Shown one piece after another: positions 1-38,291 of a DNA stretch of 64,000 nt. The position numbers were made by a program, and so were the translations under genes. Under the pieces are notes generated by a model, which was not told the DNA's origin, made no database searches, and worked only from the letters and a program-made list of their open reading frames with translations. The stretch's first letter is position 1. The number at the start of each line of letters is the position of its first letter. The DNA is from Paraspadella gotoi (Eukaryota; Animalia; Chaetognatha): contig CM119264.1 of assembly GCA_051294375.1 (NCBI GenBank), positions 13,598,813 through 13,662,812 on the forward strand, written 5' to 3'.

Positions 1-469
1 CTGCAGATATCCACCCCTGCCGCTGCGGCTGCTGCCGGGGCGCCCGCTGTTCTGGCTCCCGGAGTCACGTCNNNNNNNNNNNNNNNNNNNNNNNNNTTTT
101 TGTTTCTTTCACATCCTCTCTGCCCTACCGTGCGTAATACAACTGTATTTTTTTATATTGGAGTCAGAAGATGGCTTAATTTTGAATTCGCCGATAGTGT
201 GAGGGGGGTTTAAGAAAAGGGGTAGTTTAAGATTATGGTAATTATTTAATTTTTAAATTTAATTTTTATTATTTTTGTATAATAAAATTTTTATATATTG
301 GTATTCATACAAAGGTTTCGGCTAATTTTATATTCGCCGATTAATGTTAAAAGGGTTTAAGATTAGGGGTGGTTAGGATTAAGGAGGTTTAGGTTTATGG
401 GGTTTTGGGTTATGGTCAAGTTTAATATAGATAAGTAATAGTTTNNNNNNNNNNNNNNNNNNNNNNNNN
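1..469. other. probable scaffold-end assembly artefacts between 25-N gaps (72-96, 445-469)
   Basis: 1-71 is identical to 12907-12977; 97-444 is the reverse complement of ~601-948. Confidence 0.8.
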
Positions 470-912
470 AGAACACCGAATACATAAAAATAGTTGTAAA
501 TGATGTAAAATAAGATAAATACGGTAAAATTACGCATTCCCCGACTGGGATTTTCGTTCTTATAAATAATATATAAAATATTAAATTAAAAAAAAAAATA
601 AAACTATTACTTATCTATATTAAACTTGACCATAACCCAAAACCCCATAAACCTAAACCTCCTTAATCCTAACCACCCCTAATCTTAAACCCTTTTAACA
701 TTAATCGGCGAATATAAAATTAGCCGAAACCTTTGTATGAATACCAATATATAAAAATTTTATTATACAAAAATAATAAAAATTAAATTTAAAAATTAAA
801 TAATTACCATAATCTTAAACTACCCCTTTTCTTAAACCCCCCTCACACTATCGGCGAATTCAAAATTAAGCCATCTTCTGACTCCAATATAAAAAAATAC
901 AGTTGTATTACG

Positions 913-2146
913 CACGGTAGGGCAGAGAGGATGTGAAAGAAACAAAAAAGTGCCATCTTTGAAACCTATAAAATCTTAAAGTAAACCCATGAGACACTTA
1001 ATGTGGTAGGTCAGTAAAATTCGATAAAGGCAGGTTTTTTTTTAAATGCTCATTAAAGTTTTTGAAAATTTTTTATAAAATTTTTAAATAGTTTAGTGAA
1101 AATGCTTACAATTTTAATGTCTATACATCTATCATTATCTACAGAGCATAAGCTTTAATTTGAAACCTCTCCCAACTTTTTACAATTTTTTGTTATTGAA
1201 TTATAAGTAAAAATCATAATTAAAAAATTAATAATCAATCAGTTCTTTCAAACGGATTATTTCTTAAAAATAAAAGTACAAATAGGTTCTCAAAATGCAG
1301 TTCTACTTATTAAGCCCTAAAAACAAATTTTTAAAAAAATTTATAGAAATTTATTATAAAAAATAAATAATACAGATAATTAATTTTATTTTTTTAAGAA
1401 AAATGTGATATTTAATTAAAACTTAATCTCAAATAAAATAACAGATAAATATTAGTTGAGCACTTTAATTAAAATCATATCCAGCTTTAAAAAGTAATTA
1501 TATAATTATTACTTATCAAAAAAAAATTTTATTCATAAAATTATATTATAATAATAACTCACTCAATATTTGATATATATTATTAATAGACAAATGTGTA
1601 AAAATATTAACAAACAGAATGCTTTAACTTTTAATACTTAATTAGAGTATATATTAATATTTTCAAAATATTTTTTTCATTTTTAAAATTTTTTATATTA
1701 AAATTATTATTAATTAAAAAAAAAACTTATTTTGAAGCCTAATAAGTAGAACTGTATTTTAAGAACATATTTGTATTTTTATTTTTAAGAAATAATCTGT
1801 TCAATGGTACTAATTGATTAATCTTTTAAAAAAAATATATTTAATTTTTACTTATATTTCAATAGCGAAAAGTAATAGAAAGTTGGGAGTAATTTCAAAT
1901 TAAAGCTTATGCTTTGTAGATAATGATAGACATATAAACATTTAAATTGTAAGCATATTCACTAAACTACTTAAAAATTTTTATAAAAAAATTTAAAAAA
2001 CTTTAATGAGCATTTAAAAAAAAACCTGCCTTTATCGAATTTTACTGACCTACCACATTAAGTGTCTCATGGGTATACTTTAAGAATTTATAGGTTTCAG
2101 AGATGGCACTTTTTTTGTTCTTTCATATCCTCTCTGCCCTACCGTG
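913..2146. mobile_element. fold-back non-autonomous DNA transposon with CACGGTAG ends (Transib-like by inference)
   Basis: Inverted arms of roughly 400 bp starting CACGGTAGGGCAGAGAGGAT; flanks TTACG (908-912) and TTACA (2147-2151) suggest a 5-bp TSD. Confidence 0.75.
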
Positions 2147-2150
2147 TTAC

Positions 2151-3956
2151 AACAAGTTTGAGCAAACAATGTCGGATCTGGCCACGATTATTATCGGTAA
2201 TTAAATAATTAATTAATAATTAATTAATTAATTGACTTATTAATTAATTAACTTGAATTAACTTGATCCAAAATGTTTGTTTTGATTGATTAATTGACTA
2301 ATTGATTAATTAACTGATTAATTATTTGATTAATTTATACATCTTGCATTTACATTTAATATAAAAAAAGAAAAATAATCAATTAGTAAAACAGTTTTTT
2401 GTTTTTTTCCATTTAAACTCATTTCCACTCAAACGATTCCATCAAAACTTGATTTCCAGTTTAATCACACTTTTTCCTACCCACATACAAAATTTCAGGT
2501 CAATTGCCCCATCCACTCATGAGTAATTGGTGTTCAAATAATGAAATATATTTTTTTGTTTTTTTCTATTTTAACTCATTTCCACTTGGACGATTCCATC
2601 TAAACGTCATATCCAGCTCAATCACACACTACCCTCACCACATACAAAATTTCATCACAATCCATCCATCCAATCACGAGTAATTGGTGTTTTATGTTAA
2701 GATGGGATGGACGGACATCGTTTTTTTGCATAATTTGTTATTATTATTATTAAAAAATAATTAAACTGTCTTATAATCTATAAACACAGCAAAACAGAAA
2801 GGATTTACACATGTCATAATTTATCATAATTGGATGTTCTGACATGATATAAGTGAATGCCTGACAAGATTGGGGGGCGGACCGACAAAGTGAATTATAG
2901 AGTCGGGATCTTCACCATCTGCTAAAAACGTATTAAAAACATGGTGAAGATCCCGACTCTATAATTCACTTTGTCGGTCCGCCCCCTCAATCTTGCCGGG
3001 CATTCACTTATATCATGTCAGAACATCCAATTATGATAAATTATGCGAAAAAAAAAACGATGTTTCATCTGTCCGTCAGTCCCACCTTAAAACTCCAATT
3101 ACTCGTGATTGGATGGATGGATTGTAATGAAATTTTGTGAGTGGGTAGGTAAATGTGTGATTGAGCTGGATATGAAGTTTACATGGAATCGTGCGAGTGG
3201 AAATGAGTTTAAATAGAAAAACAAAAAGATCTATTTCACTATTTGAACGTCAATAACTCATGGGTGGACGGGGCGATTGACTTGAAATTTTGTATGTGGG
3301 TAGGAAAGTGTGTGATTAAGCTGGAAATCAAGTTTCGATGGAATCGTCAGAATGGTAATGAGTTTAAATAGAAAAAACAAAAAACCTATTTCACTAAGTG
3401 ATTATGCTTCTTTTTCTTTTTATATTAAATGTAAATGCAAGATGTATTAATTAATCAAATAATCAATTAGTTAATCAATTAGTCAATTAATTAATAAATA
3501 ATTAATTAATTGGTTAATTAATCAATTATTCAATCAATCAATTTATTTAGTTATCTATTATTTATTTGTTCAATCAATTTATTTATAAATTAATTAATTA
3601 TTTAAACAATCAAAGATCAAACAAGTCAATCGTTATCGGCATTATTGTCGTCGTCGCCATCATCGTCGTCATTGCTTTTGTCGTGGTCAGTGAAAAAACA
3701 AAAACCTAAAAACAAACAATTCAGATCAAATTAATACAAATAATAAATATATAAACTAAATAATAATTTAATTAATAAATTAATTAATTTGATCTGAACT
3801 GTTTGTTTTTAGGTCTTTTCATCACTGACCACGACAAAAGCAACGACAATAATAACAATTATTATTTTAGTTTAGATAGTTTATATTAATTAAATAATTA
3901 ATTAATTAATTACCGCTAATGATTGTGGGCAGATCCGACATTGTTTGCTCAAACTT
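2151..3956. mobile_element. head-to-head inverted pair of non-autonomous Helentron-type (HINE/DINE-1-like) elements, family A
   Basis: Palindrome centred near 2930; each half has CTATAATTCACTTTGTCGGTCC, GTCC microsatellite, internal tandem repeats and a 3' end GCAGATCCGACATTGTTTGCTCAAACTT(GTT). Confidence 0.7.
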
Positions 3957-7473: not shown

Positions 7474-8004
7474 CTAGAGGGGATGTGTGGGACATTCTGC
7501 TTCTCTATCTTACATTTTTACTAATCAGGGGGAGTGCAGTCCCAAAAACTGCGCGTCCAAAAGTTAGGAGTTATCATTTTTTATCTTGATTTTTAAAAAA
7601 ATTTCCTAAAAATTTGTAAGGAAGCAGCGCGAAGAATTTTTACATGTTATGCAAAAAGCTTTATTTACAGTATTTGTTATTGGATTTTTCATACGTTTTT
7701 GATATCGATTGAAAGAAAATTTAGCTTAGTTTCCAAATATAAACCTTTTTTCCTCTATCATAAACCGTTTTTATGCTGTAAGCACCTGAAGTTAGTCCAA
7801 TTAGAGCTGGACCTCCCTGTAAAACATGAAAAATGAAACTTGTTTCGAATTATCAGTGGATAAGAAGAATTTATCTATTATCTAAATTTTGATATTAAAT
7901 AAATACTGATTTGGCATAATTGTACTTTCGCCGACCTGAACTGAGCCGGTCGGTTATTTTTTATTCAAATAAATTATTACTGTAGTTTGATATTATAAGG
8001 ATAT

Positions 8005-8651
8005 TATGGTAGACTAAAATCCACCAACCGTTCATCAGCGGCCATTGGTGCCGGAGGCAAGTCATTCGCCTCCCAATCCAAAGGTCCGGGGTTCTAGCCC
8101 GGTGGTCGCCTAGCAGTTAAGAGGGACGGGCGCTTAACCCGCCTGTAACACGATGTTACAGCGTGATGCGAAGCTCAGGGACTACTTATATTGAACGGTT
8201 CTGTCATTAACACAACAATTATCACTGTCTCTTCATTGGTGAGCCCGACTTCCGAATACAACAGCAACAGCAACACTTTCAGGCAACATGCCTCATCCTG
8301 GCGATGTACTTTCCGCCAACAACACATCAGGCGGCATGCCTCAACTTGGTGACGAACTTTCCACCAACAACAATTCACTGAAGAGACTCAACAGACTTCT
8401 CCCTATGGGAGGGGGGATGTATGGTGGACTAAAATCCACCAACCGTTCATCAGCAGCCATTGGTGAAGGAGGCAAGTCATTCGCCTCCCAACCCAAAGGT
8501 CCGGGGTTCTAGCCCAGTGTTCGCCTAGCAGTTAAGAGGGATGGGGCACTTAACACGCCTGTAACATGGTGTTACAGCCTGATCTGAAGCTCAGGGACTG
8601 CTTATATTGAACGGTTCTGTCATTAACACAACAATTATCACTGTCTCTTCA
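8005..8651 (+). mobile_element. miniature non-autonomous LTR retrotransposon (TRIM) with tRNA-derived LTRs (Helenus-like)
   Basis: LTRs 8005-8235 and 8418-8651 (TGT..TCA); PBS TGGTGAGCCCGAC at 8237-8249 resembling the tRNA-Trp 3' complement; PPT GGGAGGGGGGA at 8407-8417; ATAT on both flanks. Confidence 0.85.
8038..8110 (+). ncRNA. tRNA-derived (Gly-CCC-like) pseudo-tRNA / Pol III cassette inside the 5' LTR; second copy 8453-8525
   Basis: Acceptor stem GCGGCCA/TGGTCGC, T-arm CCGGG-GTTCTAG-CCCGG, A-box-like TGGTGCCGGAGG, CT-CCC-AA loop; anticodon stem broken. Confidence 0.7.
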
Positions 8652-8999
8652 ATATAAATAAAAATTTATTTAGGTTTAGGGGTCGTTAGTGTTAAGGGTG
8701 ATTAAAGGTAGTTAAGGTTAGGGTTAAAGGTGGTTACTGGTAACTGTCGGCGAAAGTAAAATTAACCCAACAAGATATTAATTTTTGAAAAAAAATTATA
8801 TCAAAGGTTTGTTTTATTTTTATTTGATCAATGCATATAGTAGATATGAGATGAGTATAATGATATAAGATGAGCATCATTCGCTAGATTTTAGAAGCTA
8901 AGTATGTAATTTTTATATGCTCGAATTGCTCTGTGATATAATTTTTTTTCGGACTCATATCATGCTCCGGAGGCACAAAATCGGCAAAGGGCGTCCAGA

Positions 9000-9590
9000 T
9001 CCGAGTAAAGGTTTCTCATATTTTAAATTTAAATGAGACGACATAAGAAATAAAAGGGAAGAGGAAAAACAAATTTGAAAAAGAGAAAAAGGATCGAAAC
9101 TCTGGTCCCGATTTGCCGCCGTCATCCTCCTCTTCTTCCTCGCTTCGTCGCAGCGCGGACTCACAAGTAGAAAAGTAAAGAGCGCCGCTGCCGCCTCCGC
9201 TGCCGCCGCCTCGCCACATTGAGAGAAAAAGAGAGCTCCGCGTTTTCCGCTTTCGTCTCCTACCTTTTTATTCCGCGCTTCACTGGAGTTCACGACGACC
9301 GAAAAATAATACACATTTTGATTTTTGCAATTATCCGTATTTAAAGTTTACATTTTGTTCGAAATTTCCACGATTATTACACCGTATAATCATTCCCTAA
9401 TGCCTCTTACGTTTGTCTAAATTTTTTGCTTGCCCGGCCTTCTATTTACAGTTTGATTGGTTTTTTAATTAATATATTATATCCGTCTCCCATTCCCTAT
9501 AAAAAACCGTCGGCATTTTCCGCGACCCGGTCTATCGATCTCGTCCAGAATCGGCACTTTCTGAAAATTCTCCTGAACCAACTATCGCGG
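9000..9590. promoter_or_regulatory. CpG/GC-rich promoter and probable 5' UTR exon region of the A1CF-like gene
   Basis: GC- and CpG-rich patch (GCC repeats at ~9180-9215) in AT-rich DNA; candidate donor GCG|gtgagt at 9590 upstream of the first coding exon. Confidence 0.45.
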
Positions 9591-9865: not shown

Positions 9866-10010
9866 ATGATGGACGCCCCCCGAATTGCCAATGGTGTTGC
9901 TGGCGCCCCCAACGAATCCCGGCTGTTGGAATTGATGGAGAGGACGGGTTATCACATGATACAGGAAAATGGACAGCGCAAGTTCGGCGGCCCCCCACCT
10001 AATTGGCAGG
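9866..10010 (+). CDS. A1CF: A1CF-like coding exon 1 ([48 protein letters not shown])
   Basis: accag|ATG acceptor and G|gtaatt donor; conserved N-terminal family motif. Confidence 0.9.
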
Positions 10011-13000
10011 GTAATTTGGATTAAATTGGATCATTCACTGTTTAGCGGTGCTACTAAAGTTTTTTATAATTAATTTCCTTGTCAGGTGCCCCACCCTCCA
10101 AGGGTTGCGAGGTGTTTGTGGGAAAAATTCCACGCGATCTCTATGAGGATGAATTAGTTCCAGTGTTCGAGAGGATTGGTCAGATATACGAGCTGCGACT
10201 CATGATGGACTTCTCGGGTTCGAATCGCGGTTACGCTTTCGTCATGTACACTTCCTCGGCCGATGCTCGCCGAGCCGTCAAGGTACTTAAGTATTAAGAA
10301 GTTGGATCTCGTGTCGTGATAATCCCATTTTTTGACGAAAACAGGTTAACGCAAGATTCCATTTAATTTAGTAGATAAACGCGACGACCAATTGGAATTT
10401 CATCCCCATTTTCCCCTCCCATTCATTTTAGGAATTGAACAATTACGAAATTCGTAAGGGGCGGCTGATCGGTGTTTGCCCCTCGGTGGACAATTGCCGC
10501 CTGTTCGTTGGGGGAATCCCAAAGACCAAGTACAAGGAGGAAATCATCGAAGAAATGAGAAAAGTCACTGACGGCGTTGTGGACGTTATTGTTTATCCCA
10601 GCGCTACAGGTGAAAATGAATGAATGAATGTAGGTCGACGAGCGATAGGGGGTTTTTGGGTAAGGAGTGGTTATGGTTTAGAGTTAAGATTTAGGCAATT
10701 ATTTATAATGTTACTCATTATAAGCAAACATCCAAGGCGGTGAATGTATAATTTTAGCTTAATTTATTTTTTTCCTTTTCAGATAAGTCCAAAAATCGCG
10801 GGTTTGCCTTCGTCGAGTATGAGAATCACCGGGCGGCTGCGATGGCGCGCCGGAAGCTCAACTTAGGACGTATCCAGTTGTGGGGTCATCAGATTGCCGT
10901 CGACTGGGCCGAACCGGAGCAAGATGTGGATGAAGAAATAATGGTTACTGTAAGTTAAAAATTAGGTTCGGATAATTTAGACCCGCTGGTGACTTTAGCA
11001 GTTTTGCCAATGTTGCCCGTTTCATTGAAAACCAAAGCGACATTTCATTTACTCAGGCAGGTGGATAAACCACTTTCACCTTAGCTGTTTTATTAACTAA
11101 ACCAACAAAGTGTGCGATTGTCGGTGAGACGAGCTTCCTTAGACAACCATTGAACTGTATTGGAAACGTTAAACCAAGCTGTTCCTTCGTCCCTCCCTTT
11201 CCTCTTCTATCCCTTTTCCCTCTCCCGCCTTTTATAATTTTGTAGCGGCCGAGATTCGGCCATCAGTTGTGCAAACAGGTTTCGGCGTGGACGCTCGCAA
11301 ACAAAAAAGATGCAGCAGCAGCAGCATTTTTTTAACAAAATTTCAAATTAAAAACTTCAACTTGTTCTCTTTTGCAAAACTGTGTCAACACTTCCCCACC
11401 CTAAGGAAAATTTTCGATGAGCGTCTCCACTCTATTGTTAACCGAATATTTACGCGTTTTTCTTTGAGGTTATTTACACAGCCAGCTAAAGGAGTGAGAG
11501 TGAGTGAACAAAATAAAAAAGGCGACGAACTTTTCAATGTTTTATTTTAATTCAGGGAATTTTTCTTTCTCACTCTCGAAATAAAAAACATAAAAAGGTC
11601 CTGAAAATGAAATTGTTTTGAGATTTGGCTGATTTCTGATTCTGTGATTCTCTGGGCCAAAGTACAACAATCGTTTTCCTTGACAGGTTAAAGTACTTTA
11701 CGTTCGTAACTTGATGCTGTCTACCACTGAGGAGGCCATAGAAAAATACTTCAACGACTTCATCCCCAACTCGGTGGAGCGAGTCAAGAAGATTCGCGAT
11801 TACGCCTTTGTACATTTCAACACTCGTGAAAACGCCGTGTCGGCCATGGAGATGTCCAACGGTTTGTCCAATGTCCATTTTCCTTTTAAGAGAATAGGGA
11901 TGTAATTTTAACGATTTTACCAATGATTTCGACCAGCGACCAGCGACCAGCGGTATAACAGATAGCAGACTATAGTTTAATTACTAGCTGGGTTTAATTT
12001 TTTATCCATTTTTTAATTTTTTAAAAATATTTCTTCTTATTTATAAAACGTTATTTCCACTTTTCAGGCCAACTCTTAGACGGGAGCAGAGTCGAAGTCG
12101 TTTTTGCCAAACCGCCCGACAAAATCACCCGTCAGCAGAGCAAAAGCGTTAGCTCTCTATTATCGGTAAAACTAAAAGGATTTTTTTGCTTTTGTGTGAA
12201 AATTTCGAGGATCGCTACAATCAATACTAACCATTCATATTTTATCTTACGTAATGTTTTTTTTTACTAATTTAGAATTTTCGCATTTGTTCAGCCGGAA
12301 TCTGTAACCTCTGCGAGTTTGCCTTCTTACTATTTTGACTTGACCAGTCCCTATGCTGGCATGCCCCTTGCTCCGGGCCTGACCACATCCGCAGGTTAAA
12401 ACTAAATTCGGGAAATATAACTCTGTTTTCATGAAACGATAATTGTGTCGTTGATCTCGGAAAACCTTTATCATTATATACAGAAGGCTTCATATTATAA
12501 AATGTGGTACCCCTTTTTTGTGACCAGAATCTGTTCCCACCAAACTACCCAATCGAATTTAATGAAATTTTACATTTAGAGTGCTAATGACTATATAAAT
12601 GGAACTATCGAGGCGAATTTTGATATTCAACCCCTGACAAGAGATACAGGGCCCTGGGGGTGAAAAATGCTAAAATTTTATTTTTTTCACATCTTTATTC
12701 GGTTGTCTTATACACTTACAAATAATTTTTGGTATATATTTTGAATCTCATAATAATAATAATTCTAATCATTAGCGATAACAATATTGACTATAATTCA
12801 AAGTTATATCTTTAAACAATGACCGAAGTAGAAAATAAACCGATTTAACCCATTTGAGTCTCCTGCAGGTGCCTTTGGAACGAATCAGGCGGCTGCCTTG
12901 TCTGCGCTGCAGATATCCACCCCTGCCGCTGCGGCTGCTGCCGGGGCGCCCGCTGTTCTGGCTCCCGGAGTCACGTCCTTGGCCGGTCTAAGCAGGTGAG

Positions 13001-16000
13001 TGTGCCAAGGCTCAGTAAGATACGCACAGTGGGGTGATTACTAACGGTGTAATTTTGTCCTTGTAAGTTTTGTATAGTACGGGGGTTGACTACGTCGCGT
13101 TTTCCATTTTAAGAGAATTTCTAACCCCATCGTCTTTTTGCATTCAGTATTTTCGCATGAGACACGCCCCTTCTAGCATGGGTTGGTTTCATAATTACGA
13201 GCCTCAGGTTAAGAAATTAACGCCAAGATGGCTAATGTCGCTACGTAAAACATTTTGATTGAAAAAAAGTTAAATCTTTTGAACGTTATATTTAGTGATT
13301 TTGTCTTTTCCAAATATCTAATTGCTTAACAACAAAATATGATATTGTAGAGGAAGAATCAATGAATCTCTTAGTATTGTAATCATTTTTAAATTTTTCG
13401 TTTTTTAATTTTTAACGGACATAATGCGTTTTTGCCGCGTAGACGAGACGAGATTTTTTACTTAATTACTTATCTAATCTGGGATTAGACAATCTGCCCT
13501 TGATTTTTAGAGAATAAATACGTAATCTTAGACGAGAAAACTTTTTCTATTATTAAGAAATAATTGAAACCGCGTGATAAAATATTAAATTTACTCGATT
13601 TGTCTAGCCGTGTTTAAATTATTATTAAATTGCAAATGTACCGGATAAGTTTTGATTTTTTGGCAATTAAATTGTAATAAAAGGCCTTTTTTTTTCTTTT
13701 TCATGTATGTCCACCAAGCATAACTTTTTTGTCGCCGCTCCCCCTTCCCCCGTCTCTCCCGCTTTTTTTCCTTTCGCCCCACAACACTCAAAACGTCCTG
13801 ATCGAAACGCTCCCTTAGTACGGACCTGCTGAATCGCGTTGTGGGACGGAGTCAAATTGGTGCCATCCGTGGGCGTGGACGCGGTGCCGCGGGGATGCGG
13901 GGCGCCGGTGCCACTCGCGCTGCATACATGCAACAGCCACTAATCCCAGGGAGAAGACGGACTCCATCCGAAGTAAGACTTCTTTTTATCATTACGTCTG
14001 ATTACGCAGAGTTCCTCTTGGTTTTTTTTTTTTTAATTCGATCGTTTAAAGACTTCTAATGAGTTCGTGATACAATTTAACTATGATCAGTGACATATTA
14101 AAAAAAATGCTCTTTTACCTTTTATCTTTTCGTCCACATTTTCATCACTCTCTCTCTCTCTCTCTCTCTTAGACCCGTTTGTTTGAATTGCTGCCGGGTG
14201 TGGAGATTCTCTCACCCGCTGGTTATATTCCCAGACCTTTAAAAACACCCGCTCAGGTATAATAGCAACGGTCTTACTGGTTCTCATGTGAGCCCAGATA
14301 TTGTTAAACCTCAATTGTCGCGGACCTCAGGGTTTCCTTATATTTCCCGTCCCGATGTGGCGGTTCTATATTTTCCCAACCGCTTACTTGTCACTGTTGA
14401 CCCCACCTCATCCAATGCGGGCGTGTATATATATCCTTTTGCACCAAAAATGGTAATGAGTTATAGCATAGTTTTTGAACGAGTTATAGGTTTGATTTCA
14501 ACTGATTTCGATAATTTTTTGAACCGTCAATTATTCGTGATCATATGGTATTTTAATTCTGGGTTTGCCAAGTAAAAATCTTATTTTGGTAAAAATAGTG
14601 TTGGACTCAAATTCTTGAATCACTGAAACGGTCGACATCTTTTACAGGGACTTCCATCTTGAGTGATAGTGAAGATTGTAATATAATCGAAACGAAGAGC
14701 AATCAGGTTATATAATTTTTTATACTAATAAAAAGACTTTTTTTCTACCAATTCATAACATTTTAGCTAGGATAGTTGCTAAGTTATAAAAAAAATTTTC
14801 AGAAGATAATCTTACTATCAATCCTTCAGTTCCCATTAAAGCAATTGAATTTTTTTTCATGCTTCATTTTTATGATTAATAAGATACTTTAGTAAATGTA
14901 TCACAAACCAGAATATAAAAAAAACTTTTATAAAATGAATAATACTTGATAATAATCATTAAATTTTACTTTTAAAATCTATTAAAAATAAAAATTTCAG
15001 CTAGGGGGGGAAAAAATTATGAAAGACTGTTGATAAATAATAGTTACCATAGTAAATAAGTTTGGTTTTAAATGAGAATTTTTTTTTTTATAATAAATCT
15101 TATTTTTGACTTTTTATTACCAAAAAATTTTATTCTTATGTCAGATAACATTACAATCAGCGTTAAAAATTTTTAAATTGTTAAAAATTTAAAATTTGGA
15201 CGAAAAAAATGAAAAGTGACCCCGTGCTTGAGAGCCACTGTGATTATACTATTAGGAATTTGAACATATTTTTAGGTCAACAAACATCAAGTAGTTTCAA
15301 AACTAATAAGTGTTATAAAGTTAATATACAATTAAATAATTACGAGATTAATCAAGTCTTTTTGTATCGGTCCAGATTGAAGTCTCTGTATTGTTTGATA
15401 AAACGTTTTCTAATATGCGAATGAAATTCTATTCGTTACTAAAATTGTGTTACCGGAATTGTTTTATCTTGGTCATTTAATTTTGAAGATCTGTTTTTAT
15501 CGTCGCTAGCGATTTTGTGACGATGGTCCCCATAAAAGTTGTCTTCGTCGACGTCGTCGGCGTTCTAAATTATAGATCGCATTTGTAAATGTATGAAGCT
15601 GAAAATTTAGATATATATTCTGATCATCAAGGTCCATTAAAACTGATGAGGTAATACAGGAAATGTAATTTGTTTACATTTTATATAAACGTAACAAATT
15701 TCTTCTATTTATATTTCTCTTTCTCTCTTATCTATAATCCACTTTGTCGGTCCCCCCATAAATCTTGTCGGGCACTCATTTAAATGTCAACATTAGTTAT
15801 GATAAATTGTGCAAAAGATGTCCGTCCGTCCGTCGGTCCGTCCCACCTTTTCATTAAACTCCAATTACTCGTGATTGGATGGATGATGGATTGGAATCAA
15901 ATTTTGGGTGTCGGACCGTCGGTAGGAAAGTGTGTGATTGAGCTGGAATAGTTTCGATTGAATCGTGCGAGTGGAAATGAGTTTAAATGGAAAAAACAAA

Positions 16001-16172
16001 AGTCATATTTACTTAAAGTATTTTTACTCATAATTATTATATTAATTAATTTAGGAGAAAAACAATTTGTTTTTATCAACGAATTGTTTTATTATTAATA
16101 CATGTTTCGACTCTTGAGTTTTAGAGTCTTCATCAGTTATGACAATCAATATTTTACTCTTTAACATTAGGT

Positions 16173-16210
<38 letters not shown>

Positions 16211-19106
16211 AGAGAGAAAAAGAGGAGTTTCCAACAAAGAATAGAGCAAAGGACAGTGGTCAGATATGAGAGCAGTTGAAGGTAAGATCAGGTGAAGAAG
16301 TAAGTTGGGTGAAATTTGAAATGAGAGAGAGAGAGAGACAGGGTAGAGAAATCTTGAGCTCTTTCTCTTAACTTAATTTCACTAACTCTTTACTTACCTA
16401 TCCCTCATAACTTATTCTTCTATTTCAATTTCAACTTCTTAAACTCATTAATTTATTTTTTCAATGTTACTATTAATTTAACTCTTAAGTTTGTTATTTT
16501 ATCTCTCTATCATTGTTATACATTACAAAAAATGTAAAGATTTTCTCTTACCCTTTCTCTCTCTCTCTCTCTCTCATTTCAAATTTCACCCAACTTACTT
16601 CTTCACCTGATCTTACCTTCACCTGTCCTCATATCTGACCACTGTCCTTTGCTCAATTCTTTGTTGGAAACTCCCTCTTTTTCTGTCTCTTCTCTCTCTC
16701 TCTCTCTAACCTAATGTTAAAGAGTAAAATTATTGATTGTCATAAACTGATGAAGACTCTAAAACTCAAGAGTTGAAACATGTATTAATAATAAAACAAT
16801 TCGTTGATAAAAACAAATAAATTGTTTTTCTCCTAAATTTCAAAACGCAACGAAATCGATAGTTTATAACTTTATACACAATATATTAATTAAAAACTGG
16901 ATTGATAAATGAAAATAAATATTGTGGGTAGGAAAGTATGTGGTTAAGCTGGATATAATTTTTTTATGGAATCGTACGGGTGGAAAATAGTTTAAATTAG
17001 AAAACCAAAAGACACATTTATTTGAATTTTAAAGTTTACTTTTCTCTATCTCTCTTTGTTTGATTGGTTGACCAAATTATGCAAGTTGATCAAATTATGC
17101 AAGTTGGTATTGGCGCAGCTACTGATAGATAGATAAATTTATTCATAGATTCTTTCATAAAGTCTGTTACGATTTGTTATGATCTGTTAAGATCACCAAT
17201 TGAAAGTCAGAAAATATTACTGTGATTTATCATCGGATTAGCTTATTACCGCTTAATTATCGTAGGCAGATCCGACATTGTTTACTCAAACTTGTTTAAT
17301 TATATGTAGCTCTCTCTCTCTCTTAGTTCTCAGTCGCTGCCTCTTCTGATTTGTCCAAAAACGAGTTGAGCTCTGCAGCGTCTGAAAGTTGCGCGTCTTT
17401 CTCTTTGTTTTATCTCTCACACATTTATTCATTCAATTTCTTCAATTAAATTTGTTCAATTAAATTAATTCAGTTCTTACTTTTTAATTTATTCACTCAA
17501 TGCACTTTATTTATTTCAGTTTAAATTAAATCAGATTAAATCATTCATTCAATTTATTTTATTTCAATTTATATATTTATTTCTTTATTTATTTTTTATA
17601 TATTAAGCCAAGTATGTTATGCATAAAACTTAGTTTTCCTGTTTCAAATATTATTTTTTGTTTGAGTATTAAAGTTTGTCATGGGTCCACATTTTTTTAG
17701 ACGATTGCGACCATATTTAATTATTTTTAATATTTAATTATTTTATTATTTATACTCTAGGATTTTTTGGGAGAACTTTAAGAGTACGTTGGAAGTGCGG
17801 ATTAACCTAAACGAAATTGGATAATTTAACTGTCTGATGACATTAAAGATATGTTATATATATATATATATCTATTAGGCCGGAACAGGATGAAAACTAG
17901 AAGTTCTCTCAAAAGATAATGGTAAAGTGACTGATAGAGAATATGAAAATATTTTTATTATATTATCTTATAGATAAACACATAGAAGCATTTAAAAATT
18001 ATTTTATTAATATATAAAATATAAAAAAAATTTTTAATAGATTTTCATAGCTTTAAAAGTTATATAAATGTTCCTATTACAATTTTTTAAATTTTTTTGT
18101 TTTATTGATGACAAATTTTTAAAAAATATAAAATTCAACCTATGATGATGGTATTTTCTGTTTTAACCAATTTATTGTCCAAATTTTAAAAAATTATAGT
18201 ACTTAATTTATTCAACTTTTTAACGTTTAAAATCTGTTCTTAAAAAATAAAATTTAAAAAAAATATTTTTTATATATTAATAAATATTTAAAAGCTTCAG
18301 TGTAACAACGCAATGAACTAATTCAAAAACTTGCATTGAAAATCGATTTAGTAGTAAAAGGAAATAAAAGATTTTTTTTAGAGAATTAGATGTTATAAAA
18401 AGTGTTCAATTTTGGCCCGCTTTAATACTTATATATAATATACATATATTGAAACAATTTATAATTTTGTAATTAGTTAATGAAACAAAAAAGTTATACT
18501 TCGAGTATTAGTTCAATTTTGTTTAGAAATCAAACTATAGTGATTTGTATTGGTTCAAAACAATATGCAATTGAGCATCAAACTCCGTCATATGATCTCT
18601 AAAGCCACTTGCGTGTACTTGGCGACGCAGTGATTCAAAATGTATAGCTGGTGTCATCAATGTGGTGGTGGCGCATGCGTCTGCAACGATAAAAAGTTTT
18701 GTTTCACAATTTTGGTCGAAATGTTTTTTACGCTACCAATCTTCAACCTTTTTCTTTCCCCATTCTTTCTAATTCACCCGTCTGTCCCTCTTTCACAACA
18801 CCACCAACTTCGAACACTATATTCGACGTTTACCATGCGTTCGATTCCCCTTTCCCCTTCTGTCTTCGTCTCCTTTCTTTCGCCCCTCACCTCCCGGTAG
18901 CAACTAGAGGAGCTATGCCAAATGAATAAATGGGGACAGCCGGGATTTCAGCTCCATTCGAGCAAAGATCGGCATGACGAAGATTTGTTTCTGTACAAGG
19001 TAGGAGGATAGCATCTTCCTTATCCTTAGCGACCGATACTGACTTTTTGCGGTGTTAAAATATTATACTAGTACACTCAAACAGAAAAACCTCTTACCCG
19101 ACATTT

Positions 19107-19158
<52 letters not shown>

Positions 19159-22100
19159 GAAAAAAGCCCTTATCGCTGGATTTGTTTGAACACTTCCTAT
19201 CTCGTCAAGTTTTAGCGATTCTGGCGTCGAAGCTTTGGGTCGCATAATTTAGCGACAATTTTCTTGAAAAGCTTTCTATTTCTGTTACGCGAATTTGCTC
19301 GGTGGTCAGAAATATTCCGCTTTAACCTTGCGTTTATTTTATGCTCGGCTTCCCTTATCGATAAATTTCGTGGTTGGGGTATGTCATAGAAACCACAGAG
19401 CGCAAAGTTCACATTTTTAGAAGGATATGCAAACTAAATGTTCGATATGACGTGATAAATGAGACTGACTTTAAAACTCGGAGAAGGGTGTATTCATGTG
19501 TCTGATTTTAAATTATTGCCTTTAGAAACAATCTCTGACAGGAAAACGTTCGTTTGTTGATATTTTTTTATATTGTTCTTTAATATTTTATGTAAGTTTT
19601 TGGTTACGACGTTCTTGTATTTTTTGTTCCGTTTCTAAAAAGAAAAAGGAAGACTTTCTCAGTAAGGAAGTCTTAAACTACCTTTTCCGCCCAAATAGTA
19701 AAACTGAAATCAATTATAGCTTACGGATATTTTTATTAGGAGTGTCTGTTTTTATGCTCGCTCATTTTGCTATTGACAAGTCGCGCGACACGATTTCAGT
19801 TTTTAATCTTTATTTTGGCGTTCGGTAGGATAAATTTTTAACAAATTTTTGTTTTTAATTAATGACAAATTATCCCCTTTTTTCAATTCCCATTTTACGT
19901 CCCTTTTCCTTGGCACTTTATTTCCACTTGGTTAATTTCTTTTCTTCCTATATTTTTTTCTGCTTTCCCAAACGTTCAATTTAAATTTGTACTTTCCCTT
20001 CCATTCTCCCCGTAATATCTGAATTTTCTTTGTTTTCCCTTCTCATCGAGCTTTCTTCCCATTTCTTTTCCAACTTTTTTTGCCTCCTATCGTCTTTGTT
20101 TTTTCGATCTTTCCTTTAACTCCTAACCAAAGGTAACCATTCCGGCCCTTACCGGTCACTATCCCCAGCCCTTCGCCCCCGATCAACTGCTCAAGTCCCC
20201 CGAAGAAGCCAAGCAGTACGCTGCCGAGTACGTTCTCGGCCGATTGCAGTATCCCGTCCAAGGAGCCGACGCTGGTAAGTGATTAAATGTTTGAATTTTG
20301 CAGAGTACAAAGATTAGCTATTAGTTAATATAAGTTAGTGTTCATGGGAATCAGAAATATCGAGAAATCGGCATTCCTGGAGATCAATACGCTCTGGAGG
20401 CATAAGTAAAAGAAAGCACAAGGTTAAAGAATAAAGAATTAAAGGAAAAAGAAGAGGAACGAAACGGAATTGAAGAGGAAAATTTTTGAGAAAAAAATAA
20501 AGGAATTCAGATATTATAATTTTTTAATATTAATTATTTTTGTTATATATTTGGGTAAAAATTAAGGTTAAGTTAAATTATGGTTAAGATTAAGTTAATT
20601 AAAAAAATAAGTTAAGGTTTAAAATAAGTTAGGGGTAAGTTATGGTTAGTGGTAAGTTAGGGTTAGATTTAAAATTAAGTTTCAGCTTAAGTATACAATA
20701 ATTTAAAATTTTAAAAAATAATATTTTAATATTAATAATTTTTAAAAAAAATATAATAATAATATTTAAAAGGTAACAGAGTTTTTATTTATGATTACAA
20801 CGATCATTTAATAATTCGGAGAGAGAGAGAGAAATATATCAAGGTTAAAATTGCCTCTCTCTCTCAAAGTTAGTATTCAAATATTTTTTAAAACTATCAT
20901 AACTGGCTAAAGAAGGTTTAAAAAACAATAACCAAAACATGTCCGAATTATTAAATGATCATAGTAATCACAAATAAAAACTATTGCTTTGTAAATATCT
21001 ATCAAAAGCAATGAAAAAAAGAAATATTATGAATATTAATATTGAAAAAAAAATTTAAAGAATTAAAAAGAAATCCTTTTCTCGCGAAACTTATCAACGT
21101 TTTTAGTATCATTGTGGTTATGGTCTTTCTTCTCCGTAAAGAAACGAATTTTATTTTTTCATCTTTTCTCTTCGTTTTCCCATAAGCCTCCAGAGCGTAT
21201 TCAACTCCGGAATCGCCGCAAAAATTTTAAACGTTCTTATACGTAGTTATCATGGTAACCTATTCTATTTTTTATTCACGCTTTCTTGGGATGGCCTGTC
21301 TGTCATCCCTCACTTTCTCGCTGTCTCATTCGTTCTCATCCTTGTATTGTCTTGCGTGTCGCATTATCCTCACCCGCGACACATCTTCATTCCTTTCCCT
21401 TTTCGCTAACCCTTTTTTAGCCGGTGGTGACTCTTTTGCCATCAGCACCGTTGCGCCTCACTTCGGGGCGCAGTCGGCCGTTGATCAGAGACCTATCTCA
21501 AATCGGAGCGTCAACATTTCCCCCATCGGAACCGGTATATTTCGTATTGTACTTTAGTTTTTCCTGTTCTCTTTTCGTTCGTTTATCGTTGGCATTGAAA
21601 AAATATTAGTCTCGGTTTTCTTAAAAGGGGTTTTTAAAAAAGATTGTGATCAGTCTTCACCCCCAGCGGATAAGAATTTTCAGACGAAAATTAACATTGA
21701 ATATTACAGTGTATTCAAATGCTACTGTCTGATAACTTTTACATATTGTGCGAAACTGTGTAGTTAAATCTTATTTCTTAGATAATGATGTCAAAGATAA
21801 GTTTTTACCATTTATGATACTATGTTTCGAATTCAATTTTTATAAAAATATCTTTTTCACAAATTTTATTAAAAAAAATACTTGGGAAAATATTTTAAAT
21901 TATTAGAAATTATTCAAATTTTAATTTTGTATAAAATAAGTACATTAATAAAATTTTATTTTTAAAGTTGTGAACGATTAAATCATTAGGACAGAACAAA
22001 ATGGTAGTTATATATATATAAATATAATTTAATATTTTTTTTTTAAAAATCACTAATAACTAAGAGTTTGCTTGGTTTCATTTTTAAAATTTAATATCTT

Positions 22101-25100
22101 ATAAAATGGTCCATACTTGGGCTAGAGCCAAACTTCGTCAATGGGGTGGGTCAGAAGTTTGATTTGGGAACCTTTCCAAATAATATGTGTTTTATTCGTT
22201 TACAACAATTAGTTGAAACAGTACATTCAAAAGGGCATACAGCATTACAGATAAACGCATAAATTGTACAGTTTACAATTCAAAATATAAATATTTAAAT
22301 TAACAGAACGAAAAAAGAAAAAAAAAATCAACAATAAGCTGACAAGATTTTTAGAATATTGTTTCTAGAGGAAAAAAGCTTGGATTCAAAGTTTTTTGAT
22401 CTACAAGCACAAATTTTATAGATATCATTATATCCAAATGAGGACCTTAATGATCGTACACTCTCCCATCTATTCCAACCAAAAATTTTTCTAATGCCAT
22501 TATTTATTGCTACATTTACTTTGGTCATATCTTTTGCAAGATACTCTTTCACTTCACTTCCGTACGTAAGTATTGTGACACAATTGGTGTAGTACAAACG
22601 CATTAAAACTTCTTCTGAGGGTTTATATAAGGAATTAAGGAGACAATTGCTAGAGCGGTAGAAAGAGGATAACTCAGATAATGGGTCAAAGACAAATGCT
22701 TTTTCATTACTAAGATTAAAACCGAGATATTTCCATCGGTCTACGAATTCAATGATATTTCCTTTAATTAGTAAAGAATCTTTGTTGATACAATACTTTT
22801 GTTTGCCAAAATACATTGTTTTTGTTTTCTTAAAATTAAAACTAAAAGCATTGCTACTACTATAGTTAGCACATATATCAATCATTTTTTTCATACCAGA
22901 AATTGTTGGAGATAACAAAGCTATATTGTCAGCGTAAAAAATGCTAGCAGCAAATAAATGATCTATATGGCAACCAAAACCATATTTTCGTAATTGAATT
23001 ATCAAGTCATCAACATAAACTGCCCACAGATAGGGACTTAAAATACCACCCTGACAAACCCCAGAAACAATAGAGAAATAATCTGAAAAGATGTCAGACC
23101 ATCTACACCTACTGCGGAGATTAAGGTACCAGTAAGTAATAAGTCGTAAAAAACATAAGGGAAATTTTCTCTTTATGAGTTTTAGAAATAAACCATAATG
23201 GTTAACCTTGTCAAATCCTTTTGAGCAATCCATGAATGTAGCAAACACCCCAGAACCATTTTGCAAAAAATGATTAACACACGTCTTCATGACAAAAACA
23301 TGACAAATGAAACTTCATACATTTCTGAGAAAACTTTCAATGGACCAAAATTTTCTAAAATGGCAAGAAGCATTAGTAATTAATTTTTTTATATTTATTT
23401 ATAGATAAGAAATGTCAAAAAAAATTTTTTGAATTTTTTATTTTTAAAAGCAGATTCAAATAGCTTATGAAAAGTTAACTACACAAAGTACAATTCTTTT
23501 TTCAATATTTTGATGATAAGTGGGTTTAAATTGAGAAAAACCTTAAAAAATCATCATCATCATCATCATCCGATGATTTTAGCAGTTTTTACTAATTTTT
23601 AGTAATAAAACATCAAGATTTTAAAAAGTTGTAATTATATTTTTTGCTTAACTTTTTAAGCTCTATCAGAATCAATTAAAAAAACGTAAAATATCCCCAA
23701 AAAATTTTTGAAATTAAATAGCAATATAATAATATAAATTAGCGAATTACTCATGGTTCGGAACATTTTTGCAAAAATATATTTTAACACAATAATTAAT
23801 ACCAATAATGGATTAGTTTAATGCTGTTCCCATTAAAATTTGAATTTGGTCGGCTACCGCTACTTGGGCGCTTATTCATGATAATGAATTCAAATTTTTC
23901 AATCTGGTATAGGAGCAATAAGCTTTTATTAACGGACCGCATCATTGGGACACACTGTAGTACTCAATTTTATTGTTCTCTGTTACTATGATTTAGTAAG
24001 TCTGTACGTTAGAGCGTTCAAAGATAACAAAATATAAGCTATTAAATTCCATTCATGATTATTTTACTGTTTAAGGTCAGAAGAATTCGATGGTGATGAC
24101 CATTTTTTTGTGTATAATTTCATCTTTCTTGTCGGAAATATATATATAATTATATATTGATACATCGGTATTATTAAAATTTTATAAAACTTACATGAGC
24201 TTTTGAAATATAAAAATATAGACCTATAAAAATATTTAGGTAAATTTATTTCTAAATTTTATGTTTCATTAAAAGTTATCTATATTTATTATTAATTATG
24301 AGTAAAAATTAAGCTAAAGTTAAAAAATAATAATTTTAAAAAATTGATCCCGGATTCGCATTCCTTGCAAAAAGTAGATGTAAGAAAATATTTTTTATTA
24401 AAATATTGTCGTTAAGGTGGTCAAAATTTAAAAAAAAAAAAATTTTAAGCAAACATAAAATTAAACAACTTTTTGTAAGGAATTCAAATCCGGTTTAAAA
24501 ATTTTAAAATTGTTATTTTTTTTACTTTAGCCTATTTTTTACTACTAATTATTAATAAATATAGCTAACAGGCTGTTAATAAAATATAAAATTTGTAAAT
24601 AAACTTACTAAAATATTTTTATGGGTTTTTATTTTTATATTATATAAGCTAAATATGATTTTTATAAAATTTTAATAATTTGACTTTCTCATACTCTATA
24701 ATGTTTGCGCTATTTTAATAGCACCATATATGCTTCAAAAACCTCTACATAAGATGAAACTATACAAAAGAATGGTTATCATCATCGAATTCTTCAGAGC
24801 TTATTACATTAAAATATTAGGAATTGTTTATTGTTTGCCAATACAACGATTTTTATTGTCATAGTACATGTTTCGACTCTGTTGATTCGAGTCTTCATAA
24901 GCTTCATAAGCTGATGAAGACTCGAATCAACAGAGTCGAATCAACAGAGTCGAAACATGTACTATGACAATAAAAATCGTTGTTTTGGCAAACAATAAAC
25001 AATTCCTAATATTCACTTAGCAACGAAAAGAGAGAAAATAATACAATGTCTACATTAAAATAATAATGAATGGAATTAAATATCTTATATTTTGTTATCT

Positions 25101-26188
25101 TTGAACTCTCTACATTAAAGCGTAGCAAAAATATTAAAATCAAATAGAATCAAAATTCGAATAGTAGATTATGAATAGGCTTGTATCTGTGAACATTGAT
25201 ATATAATTTTTTTTTTAAATTTCTCAATTTTCACATTTTTATGCATAGAAAATGTAAAAAATTTAAAATATATTTTTTTCTTTTTCACATACGCCCATAT
25301 TTATGCATAGTATTTACCATAGAAAATGTTAAAAATTTAAAAAAGATTTTATTTTTCAAAGCAGATTCGAATTCTCTCACGAAAAGTTGATAAAAGGAAA
25401 TATAACTCTTTTTAGAACATTATTTCATTAAGTGGGTCAAAATCCTAAAAAATTATAGTTTACCTATAATTTAATTTTAGTATGAAAAATATAGTTTTTT
25501 ATATATTTTTAGCTTACTTAATAAAATAATTTTTAATTAAGACTTATGTTTTTTTCTATCAACTTTTTATGAGGAAAACGAATCTGCTTCTCAAACTAAA
25601 GAAAAACCTATTTTAAAATTGTGACATTTTCTATGGTAAGTAATATGTAAAAATATGGGCGTATACGAAAATTGAGAAATTAACCCAAAAAAATTATATA
25701 GTATAGTGTTCGTTAGTAAAACACTGTTCATGAACAACTATTCGAATTTTGATCTGCAACTTTCACTATGCCTTACTGTACGTGTTCCGTGGAAACTTTT
25801 CAGTAAGAAGGTGACAGAATTCTGTGCGACGTCTCGCATCGGCTTGTTGCGTTTATCCCCATTGATACTGTGCTACCGCCTCTTTCAAGCGAGTTGTTCC
25901 GCGTTTTCCTTGTTCTAATTAGGGCTTTCCCGAAATACTTCGACCGGTGCTGGCTTTTCTACTGGCGGAGTCCCTCGCAACGGGCCGCCCGTGGCGCATG
26001 GTATGGGCGATCACCCTGGGTTCTACGGAAGCGGAGCTGTCGCTGCGATTGCAACTGCCGGAGCTTCTTCTGGAGCCGCCGGGTCTAGCGGATCTGCCGG
26101 ATATGTTCTGTCCCAAGGTTCCGATATGAATCCCAAGCTTCAGCCGAGCAAAGCGTTCGGCTTTCCTCTCAATGGAGTTGGCATCTAA
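9866..26188 (+). CDS. A1CF: A1CF/RBM46/RBM47-family RNA-binding protein, isoform with proximal last exon. Coding exons 9866-10010, 10086-10282, 10432-10609, 10783-10949, 11687-11861, 12068-12165, 12295-12394, 12869-12995, 13819-13972, 14173-14256, 18901-18999, 20133-20274, 21421-21534, 25923-26188 (2046 nt, 681 aa)
   Basis: All introns are GT-AG with consistent phases. Translation gives [26 protein letters not shown]1 [27 protein letters not shown]2 [37 protein letters not shown]3 [35 protein letters not shown], and a dsRBM-like [35 protein letters not shown], all typical of A1CF/RBM46/47. Exact orthology is uncertain (could be a co-ortholog). Confidence 0.9.
10086..10282 (+). CDS. A1CF: A1CF-like exon 2 (RRM1)
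   Basis: gtcag| and |gtactt; RNP2 VFVGKI, RNP1 RGYAFVMY. Confidence 0.95.
10432..10609 (+). CDS. A1CF: A1CF-like exon 3 (end of RRM1, start of RRM2)
   Basis: tttag| and |gtgaaa; [31 protein letters not shown]. Confidence 0.95.
10783..10949 (+). CDS. A1CF: A1CF-like exon 4 (RRM2)
   Basis: ttcag| and |gtaagt; [36 protein letters not shown]. Confidence 0.95.
11687..11861 (+). CDS. A1CF: A1CF-like exon 5 (RRM3)
   Basis: gacag| and |gtttgt; [31 protein letters not shown]. Confidence 0.95.
12068..12165 (+). CDS. A1CF: A1CF-like exon 6 (end of RRM3)
   Basis: ttcag| and |gtaaaa; [16 protein letters not shown]. Confidence 0.9.
12295..12394 (+). CDS. A1CF: A1CF-like exon 7 (low-complexity linker)
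   Basis: ttcag| and |gttaaa; open and phase-compatible ([24 protein letters not shown]..). Confidence 0.75.
12869..12995 (+). CDS. A1CF: A1CF-like exon 8 (Ala-rich linker)
   Basis: tgcag| and |gtgagt; phase-compatible. Confidence 0.8.
13819..13972 (+). CDS. A1CF: A1CF-like exon 9 (RG box)
   Basis: cttag| and |gtaaga; [15 protein letters not shown]. Confidence 0.88.
14173..14256 (+). CDS. A1CF: A1CF-like exon 10 (84 nt, symmetric phase 0)
   Basis: cttag| and |gtataa; [28 protein letters not shown] resembles the A1CF segment just before the dsRBM. Confidence 0.75.
16099..16136 (-). ncRNA. minimal type I hammerhead ribozyme motif
   Basis: CUGAUGA-A-GACUC-loop-GAGUC-GAAA-CAUG-UA. Confidence 0.8.
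16747..16784 (+). ncRNA. minimal type I hammerhead ribozyme motif
   Basis: CUGAUGA-A-GACUC-loop-GAGUU-GAAA-CAUG-UA. Confidence 0.75.
18901..18999 (+). CDS. A1CF: A1CF-like exon 11 (dsRBM-like, N-terminal half)
   Basis: long pyrimidine tract ggtag| and |gtagga; [25 protein letters not shown]. Confidence 0.9.
20133..20274 (+). CDS. A1CF: A1CF-like exon 12 (dsRBM-like, C-terminal half)
   Basis: caaag| and |gtaagt; [25 protein letters not shown]. Confidence 0.9.
20369..21217. mobile_element. MITE-like element with ~35-bp inverted ends, containing TTAGG-like repeats and a decayed hammerhead insertion
   Basis: ATTCCTGGAGATCAATACGCTCTGGAGGC versus GCCTCCAGAGCGTATTCAACTCCGGAAT. Confidence 0.55.
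21421..21534 (+). CDS. A1CF: A1CF-like exon 13 (symmetric phase 1)
   Basis: tttag| and |gtatat; open, GC-rich relative to flanks. Confidence 0.7.
21707..23957. mobile_element. decayed Tc1/mariner-like MITE interrupted by a LINE fragment
   Basis: TA|CAGTGTATTCAAATG.. and ..CATTGGGACACACTG|TA degenerate TIRs. Confidence 0.5.
22190..23295 (-). mobile_element. 5'-truncated non-LTR retrotransposon; reverse transcriptase C-terminal ORF 22328-23290 (RTE-X-like by inference)
   Basis: [32 protein letters not shown] (catalytic YADD mutated), WKYLG; 3' UTR ending CGAATAAA. Confidence 0.9.
24817..25050 (+). mobile_element. Penelope-like hairpin insertion with hammerhead motifs
   Basis: Near-perfect ~90-bp inverted arms; tail CAACGAAAAGAGAG; TSD TACATTAAAATA at 24805-24816 and 25051-25062. 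Confidence 0.82.
24911..24961 (+). ncRNA. minimal type I hammerhead ribozyme motif
   Basis: CUGAUGA-A-GACUC..GAGUC-GAAA-CAUG-UA-CUAUG; 14-nt duplication in stem II. The minus-strand partner at 24865-24901 reads CUUAUGA. Confidence 0.8.
25116..25775. mobile_element. fold-back hAT-like MITE (TAAAGC..GCCTTA), same family as 29426-30031
   Basis: Inverted arms (ATACGCCCATAT / ATATGGGCGTAT etc.); shared ends and internal CATTAAGTGGGTCAAAA motif. Confidence 0.65.
25923..26188 (+). CDS. A1CF: A1CF-like proximal terminal exon (Gly/Ser/Ala-rich, ends GVGI*)
   Basis: attag| acceptor in phase 1, open to TAA at 26186-26188; AATAAA at 26403-26408. Confidence 0.7.
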
Positions 26189-37725: not shown

Positions 37726-38026
37726 GGACTACGGGGAGTTGAAAAATAAAAAAACGTGAGCGATTTTTTTACAAGGGTGCAAAACCCGAAGTTTGTGGAA
37801 GACGATGCCGCGAGCAGTTCACCGTCCGTTGCACACAAGGTCCCGAACTTCGGATCGGGCTGTAGTCCGTCACTACAGGTGGGTGAGACGCCCCGTCCCG
37901 CTTTTACTTGTGTGAATCAGCAGGGCGCAAACCCAAGTCCTTTGGGTTGGGAGGAGCTCGTGCTACCTCCGGCGCCATAGGTGCTGCTGATTCTCGGACG
38001 AGTAACGGGGTATGAAATACTACCGC
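37726..38026 (+). ncRNA. unidentified GC-rich, highly base-paired RNA-like island
   Basis: At least 8 nested or adjacent stems, with G-U pairs favouring the + strand (see findings). Confidence 0.45.
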
Positions 38027-38291
38027 TACAAGTTGCTATAACAAGTAATATAGCCACAGTATTTGATCATTCTATTTCACTCCCATTTGAGATCTGTTGA
38101 GATCATCCGTTGAGATCCGTAAGTTCACCCTTTAACGGCGATGTTCTTTTGTTTATTTTCACCCTGCTTGGGCAAACCGTCAAGGTTGATTGCGCCAGCG
38201 CCACTTTTGTTTTTTTATTGCAAAGACAGATGCTAAACTTTTCATGATGACATAACTATTATATCACATGAATGTTGAGTTTCATTTTTTT

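Follow-up and report, generated by a model that had tools for sequence, protein, structure and literature searches.

Positions 8005-8651 of the window, by which we mean the whole 64,000-nt stretch of AT-rich animal DNA that was analysed, hold two direct repeats around a short interior. The locus raises the question of whether these repeats are the LTRs of a retroelement and, if so, which RNA functions they carry. The repeats are 92.7% identical, differing by 16 substitutions (9 transitions and 7 transversions) and one gap (K2P 0.073), and with the interior they form a non-coding unit of 647 bp (Table 1). The initial annotation had proposed LTRs of about 233 bp, starting with TG, around a 182-bp interior. 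Two LTRs are indeed present, but at 231 and 232 bp, and the interior measures 184 bp; it has no long open reading frame and contains the 48-bp tandem repeat noted earlier (8271-8372, 2.1 copies, 81%). Since contigs of other copies depart exactly before 8005 (n = 46) and 8420 (n = 43), the LTRs start with TA, not TG; the TG at 8418-8419 is the end of the interior. The purine tract is real, but it ends 2 bases before LTR2 and does not abut its start.

The primer-binding site lies one base past LTR1. Comparison with PMC10886601 Fig. S2 confirmed the 12/13 match to the 3′ end of tRNA-Trp, and no second site of the tRNA-Trp type occurs in the window. The ATAT flanks were also as annotated; equal 4-mers on both sides have a local chance of 0.006, and other copies in contigs likewise adjoin AT-rich, often ATAT-like flanks. 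Predicted folds contained both the stem said to bracket the tRNA-like cassette and the CTGTAAC/GTTACAG hairpin. Six pairs of this outer stem are kept in a sister family, one of them with a change on both sides, and the 5′ arm of the stem precedes the point where Pol III presumably starts. No T4 terminator occurs in the element, but the same holds for 25-46% of shuffles, so its absence carries no significance. Positions 8005-8651 are a genuine non-autonomous LTR element (TRIM); the earlier reading as such an element with a tRNA-derived segment is supported by this anatomy and by the multi-copy interior.

Table 1. Features of the element and of a related solo LTR, in window numbering
Feature	Position	Strand	Basis
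Left 4-bp target-site duplication, ATAT	8001-8004	+	Sequence
LTR1, 231 bp, TA...CA	8005-8235	+	Repeat alignment; contig ends
Outer stem, arms 8026-8034/8192-8200	8026-8200	+	Predicted folding; encloses tRNA-like part and predicted ribozyme
tRNA-like segment of LTR1	8038-8110	+	Descriptor 22.5 of 26
Predicted P5-order twister ribozyme of LTR1	8112-8186	+	Descriptor; RF03160/RF02684 consensus lines
Non-coding interior, 184 bp	8236-8419	+	Multi-copy in contigs of 4/4 public runs
Primer-binding site	8237-8249	+	12/13 complementary to tRNA-Trp-CCA 3′ end
Polypurine tract, 2 bases 5′ of LTR2	8407-8417	+	Sequence; 11-base purine run
LTR2, 232 bp, TA...CA	8420-8651	+	Repeat alignment; contig ends
tRNA-like segment of LTR2 with a partly broken acceptor stem	8453-8525	+	Descriptor 21.5 of 26
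Predicted twister ribozyme of LTR2	8527-8602	+	Descriptor
Right 4-bp target-site duplication, ATAT	8652-8655	+	Sequence
Probable sister-family solo LTR, 237 bp, TG...CA	37794-38030	-	BLAST of window; AACT on both sides

To examine other copies, contigs of four public runs (from three studies; X5 and X6 resemble one data set, and X1 may stem from the source itself) were aligned to positions 7600-9100. In run X1, 10036 contigs fell on this 1501-bp stretch, nearly all of them within the element. Their summed depth, which is not a copy number, was about 10^5-10^6 over the LTRs and about 10^5 over the interior, compared with 35 over unique flank. The element thus belongs to a large family, interior included. 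The right junction of the insertion was seen in 4/4 runs, which fits an old, shared insertion. No clean empty site was present among the contigs of the four runs on 7600-9100; joints skipping 763-769 bp were considered as such a site and rejected, as they derive from the surrounding repeat. The element lies inside an inverted-repeat element (arms 7875-7935 and 8746-8806) that is itself moderately repeated. Several related families of foldback/MITE-like palindromes also occur in the window (97-3956, 16048-16839, 24060-25775, 29462-30031 and 40149-40742).

The TRIM is located about 1.2 kb upstream of the ATG (9868) of an A1CF/RBM46/47-like gene (9868-26185, + strand), and an exact 71-bp copy of an exon segment of this gene (12907-12977) forms window positions 1-71. 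One exon is 92-97% identical to its closest proteins and at most 86% to proteins of named organisms. In a quick tree of 36 rows, which had no ctenophore, brachiopod or wasp and did not include the window protein, those closest proteins formed a separate clade, and none of the named rows (bivalve, nemertean, insect, vertebrate and others) fell within it. Judged from these sequences, the host lineage is likely new for Helenus, the family of tRNA-carrying elements discussed below. No autonomous or Gypsy partner was found within the 64-kb window. A reverse-transcriptase fragment at 22328-23314 (- strand; Pfam RVT_1, E 5e-19) is by its look non-LTR, so it is not the helper.

A BLAST search of the window found a relative, which is best read as the solo LTR of a sister family. 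Its alignment score is 94, compared with at most 31 in 1000 shuffles, 129 of 232 columns (56%) are identical to LTR2, and the layout is that of the LTRs. The duplications seen are ATAT for the element and AACT for the sister, from two insertions only. A 229-bp island at 48400-48628 (- strand; GC 45% versus 15-34%) also runs from TG to CA, without a 4-bp duplication. It holds at 48478-48497 a canonical twister P4-L4 hairpin whose immediate surroundings match those in the LTRs, and it is the best match of a P5-order twister model trained on phage sequences (E about 0.001). This island is possibly a third, decayed family.

The 5′ half of LTR1 has a 7-bp acceptor stem (8038-8044/8103-8109), a box A from 8046 and a box B at 8091-8099. 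With a descriptor composed of box A, box B, acceptor stem and T-stem (maximum 26), the LTR1 score was reached by 0 of 5000 shuffles and that of LTR2 by 6 of 5000; the sister head was not significant alone. The cloverleaf of the initial annotation survives in its boxes and acceptor stem but not as a fold: the consensus fold of the segment is not a cloverleaf, and ARAGORN and Rfam gave no tRNA match at the LTRs. This degree of decay equals that described for Helenus. The segment is presumed to be a Pol III promoter. A reading of the 3′ domain of the LTR as a second tRNA was set aside in favour of the following one.

The domain 3′ of the tRNA-like part is multi-stemmed and kept in both families, and we predict that it is a twister ribozyme of the P5 order cleaving at a U-A step. 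Its parts follow one another as P5, UAA, P2′, GA, T1′, short linker, UAA (cut site), P2, T2, P3, P4, L4, P4′ and P5′. This is the order of a circularly permuted P5 twister, matched element by element to the RF03160/RF02684 consensus lines and compared also with Schistosoma twisters (PMC8501958 Table 1) and the structural review PMC5408937. In LTR1 the predicted G45 is at 8125, the cut at 8135/8136 and U24 at 8167; in LTR2 the corresponding positions are 8540, 8551/8552 and 8583. Likenesses to the type-P5 twister (RF02684; clan CL00120) are the order P2′-GA-T1′-P1-UAA-P2-T2-P3-P4-L4, the catalytic G and A and both pseudoknots, and for P3 there is a resemblance to the consensus of RF03160 and to Schistosoma twisters listed in PMC8501958 (Table 1). 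The differences are an A-U rather than G-C pair closing L4, a CCG/CGG pseudoknot T1, a 3-pair P2 and a P1 of about one pair. The hairpins whose stems had been reported as kept between the LTRs are real, but their identity had been missed: they are P3 and P4 of the predicted twister. The sister family does not keep the GTTAAG/CTTAAC hairpin, which overlaps the predicted cleavage site.

Scores from a twister descriptor (maximum 27.5) were 23.5, 23.5 and 25.5 for LTR1, LTR2 and the sister. The descriptor had been relaxed once the sequence was known, so that a 3-base P2 and a short P1 would pass. In the first version, 6, 5 and 0 of 60000 shuffles reached these scores, respectively; when P3/P1 hairpins were required, the numbers were 0, 2 and 0 of 100000. 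The three sites are the top three of the 64-kb window, and ten Rfam-confirmed phage P5 twisters scored 23.5-27.5. As controls we used 120 loci from a metagenome scan for the P4-L4 hairpin; 23.5 or more was reached by 4/120 in the first version and 2/120 in the second, and none of the 120 had a longer likeness to the LTR.

Alignment of the three copies showed pseudoknots T1 and T2 and stem P4 to be present. The 19-pair structure has 56 cells across the copies, of which 53 are paired, compared with 29-45% in slid controls. Three pairs have changed on both sides (three sequences, two families), one of them in pseudoknot T2, where the sister has a compensatory A-U. Core positions are common to LTR2 and the sister at 14/16, versus 129/232 overall. 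The core nucleotides A7, A8, U24-C26, A28, A29, G30, G45, A46, G48 and G49 are all present across the family, and each window copy deviates at one. In the sister, whose fold lies at 37832-37914, the deviation is a C at the A7 position (37885).

We compared the departures from the twister consensus with the mutational scan of the rice twister Osa-1-4, using part of the matrix in PMC5113685. Both families have G23-C32 changed to A-U and C27-G47 changed to G-C, and the sister also has G13-C31 changed to A-U. Relative to wild type, the activities of G23A/C32U, C27G/G47C and G13A/C31U are 0.85, 0.86 and 0.89, while G13A alone gives 0.17; each double change is the best partner among the matrix columns listed, and the three were measured singly, not combined, and in the rice twister. 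Changes predicted to impair cleavage are, by the same matrix, C25G in LTR1 (0.12) and A7C in the sister (0.04); LTR2 has additional changes in T1 and P2 for which impairment is likewise predicted.

The two LTRs have a broken pair or core base at six places (8163, 8168 and 8184 in LTR1; 8542, 8555 and 8585 in LTR2). Among the matches listed, most contig depth is pairing-compatible at five of these in 4/4 runs. The sixth is 8184, where the pairing-compatible depth among the matches listed is 29% in X1 and 78-91% in the other three runs; the other five places have 80-99% in X1, again among the matches listed. The copies that spread had an intact core, as is expected of post-insertion decay, and this is not itself proof of selection. 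The copy at 8005-8651 is old, its LTRs having diverged by 7%, and impairment is predicted for both of its ribozymes.

Standard models did not recognize the fold. The Rfam twister models gave no match at E<=10 in three stretches or at E<=1 in the window, and LTR1, LTR2 and the sister do not reach the RF02684 gathering score. E-value mode was used because the gathering thresholds missed 20/20 pattern-picked P1-order loci; the same Rfam models found 11/15 pattern-picked phage loci. With the phage-trained P5 model, for which 23 P5 twisters had been used, LTR2 scored only 6.4 bits (E 3.4), and neither LTR1 nor the sister was listed. The window had no significant match to a P1-order model either (best E 2.7). 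No Rfam hammerhead match occurred in the element or window. Energy minimisation, which does not allow pseudoknots, recovered P3-P5 only for the sister, LTR1 and LTR2 preferring other folds. Of two viral-contig scans for the LTR twister variant, one gave 12 chance matches in coding DNA and the other 0 matches. The viral contigs L250-L309 hold many P5-order twisters, some with long P1 and P3 hairpins.

In both families P2 has a 3-base strand with three pairs and a bulge, where four pairs are typical, and P1 is a 5-6 nt linker with about one pair. According to the part of PMC5408937 covered, a P2 of altered length probably upsets the active site, and P1 is described as dispensable in vitro; many single changes are tolerated in P1, P2 and P4. 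Phage locus L290 has a 3-base P2 strand and scores 49.5 bits on RF02684. The missing Rfam match, the short P2, the near-absent P1 and the core deviation in 3/3 window copies are what one would expect if the element were an ordinary Helenus-type TRIM that replicates through a linear RNA made by Pol III or Pol II, its twister-like domain being a relic or a non-catalytic structure, e.g. from a SINE or RTE 5′ end, kept for packaging or stability. We regard this as unlikely, although a real contender, since two families of only 56% identity have retained the catalytic positions and, with compensatory change, both pseudoknots, most other copies keep the core, and the changes are those tolerated in the mutational scan.

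The element is a high-copy TRIM with a tRNA-like segment, a probable Pol III promoter, and a predicted twister in each LTR, and we believe that it probably transposes through a self-cut RNA circle. Pol III would start near 8038, find no T4 in the element and read through both LTRs. It would read to 8782, and the ribozyme cut would make this read-through harmless. Each twister would then cut at its U-A step, releasing a 416-nt unit (8136-8551) with a 5′-OH, a 2′,3′-cyclic phosphate and no terminal repeat. Because it would have no terminal repeat, this unit would have to be circularised for copying. A host ligase of the RtcB type could close it, and one whole LTR would re-form across the junction. 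Circularisation of the unit has been proposed for plant LTR retrozymes (PMC4918200, in the part covered); PMC7229834 describes, in its corresponding part, the closing of animal retrozyme RNAs by RtcB and the formation of circles from tandem twisters in mammalian cells. tRNA-Trp would prime at the primer-binding site, and a Gypsy reverse transcriptase and integrase would copy more than one round and insert the product with a 4-bp duplication. The Trp primer together with the 4-bp duplication suggests a Gypsy helper; animal Helenus elements with both match Gypsy in the part of PMC10886601 covered.

The twister might instead be active in the 3′ LTR only, as a substitute for a terminator, giving a linear RNA (about 8038-8551) with a terminal repeat of about 98 nt for ordinary strand transfer. 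The outer stem would then be a switch, as its 5′ arm is transcribed only in the 3′ LTR copy. The stem is kept in both families, the LTR1 fold buries the cut site in an alternative hairpin, the element has no T4, and the circular fold is only modestly stable (z -2.1 versus 60 shuffles). However, in either LTR the presumed start precedes the entire ribozyme, which means that both copies would be transcribed complete, and the sister has not retained the blocking hairpin; we consider this version improbable. A tandem duplication of a tRNA-derived SINE, the alternative raised in the initial annotation, would explain the tRNA-like head in each repeat and the single unit at 37794-38030, but it is contradicted by the primer-binding site, polypurine tract and 4-bp duplications, by a multi-copy interior and sharp TA...CA ends elsewhere, and by a single unit that runs from TG to CA between 4-bp duplicates and lacks an A tail.

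The interpretation as a circle-forming TRIM can be set against known systems. In the LTRs of Helenus-2_SyJa and Helenus-2_SyUm, there are CUGAUGA and GAAA motifs, which we take to be type III hammerhead cores. By eye, these LTRs, in the part of Data S1 of PMC10886601 covered, have a tRNA-like part in the 5′ half followed by three stems with complementary loops. From their sequences, the two families appear to carry a type III hammerhead at the same place as the twister here. Their primer-binding site is complementary to tRNA-Trp, as in the present element.

In its general design the element corresponds to Helenus/TRIMp3 (Kojima 2024, PMC10886601), as far as the parts of that source covered here go: a length below 1 kb, LTRs with tRNA-like boxes A and B that are thought to serve as Pol III promoters, a tRNA primer-binding site, a polypurine tract, a 4-bp target-site duplication and an occasional TA start, found in several wasp LTRs. 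The tRNA-carrying LTR, including Trp primers and the TA starts in wasps, is published. In most animal Helenus families, again in those parts, the tRNA-like part occupies the 3′ half of the LTR and is often followed by a T run. Here, unlike in most of them, it occupies the 5′ half, a 75-nt twister fold comes next, and there is no T4. None of five element motifs occurred in Data S1, where line breaks can hide matches, and the parts of it inspected by eye held no close family. The parts of PMC10886601 covered describe no ribozyme in Helenus; its main text names ribozymes in a single reference title only and retrozymes in a single sentence. Both Ajax LTRs in Data S1 contain 11 consecutive bases that also occur around the cut site of the LTR, which may be chance.

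Plant LTR retrozymes (Cervera et al. 2016, PMC4918200, in the part covered) are likewise non-coding LTR elements with one ribozyme per LTR, a primer-binding site, a polypurine tract, a 4-bp target-site duplication, a Gypsy-type helper and an expected unit-length circle. They differ in having a type III hammerhead, a tRNA-Met primer and a unit of 600-1000 nt, whereas the window element has a twister fold, an animal host, a tRNA-Trp primer site, a tRNA-like promoter segment and a 416-nt unit whose circle is a prediction only. Schistosoma Perere-3 (RTE) twister variants, animal non-LTR retrozymes and Sm-alpha SINEs also have retroelement RNA processed by a small ribozyme, but they are non-LTR or tandem, without primer-binding site, polypurine tract or 4-bp duplication. 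SINE-like repeats of Schistosoma combine a Pol III promoter with a hammerhead (PMC6765202, in the part covered). In the parts of PMC7761336, PMC7229834 and bioRxiv 10.64898/2026.07.22.740005 covered, LTR retrozymes come from plants and carry type III hammerheads, and animal retrozymes have no LTRs, primer-binding site or polypurine tract. Searches of full-text literature, outside Repbase, Dfam, subscription journals and preprint supplements, turned up neither a twister-bearing LTR element nor an LTR retrozyme from an animal.

Strictly, the element has no hammerhead and is not an LTR retrozyme, and its P2, P1 and score place it outside the Rfam twister. Most likely, it works like a retrozyme in which a divergent twister replaces the hammerhead. 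We lean, by a little, towards a broader proposal: that true LTR retrozymes exist in animals, as TRIMs driven by Pol III whose LTRs each hold a self-cutting ribozyme and which move by way of circular RNA. The ribozyme would be a twister here and a type III hammerhead in the wasp families Helenus-2_SyJa and Helenus-2_SyUm; LTRs combining promoter and ribozyme would have arisen more than once and would join TRIMp3 and retrozymes in one class. The twister fold of the LTR is a candidate variant missed by current Rfam models. If the reading is correct, an animal LTR element with twisters would go beyond both descriptions, of LTR retrozymes as plant elements with hammerheads and of animal retrozymes as lacking LTRs. 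The twister would gain a concrete natural role, the production of RNA circles of the kind obtained from tandem twisters in engineered vectors, and the question of how TRIMs with tRNA promoters define the ends of their RNA would have a possible answer.
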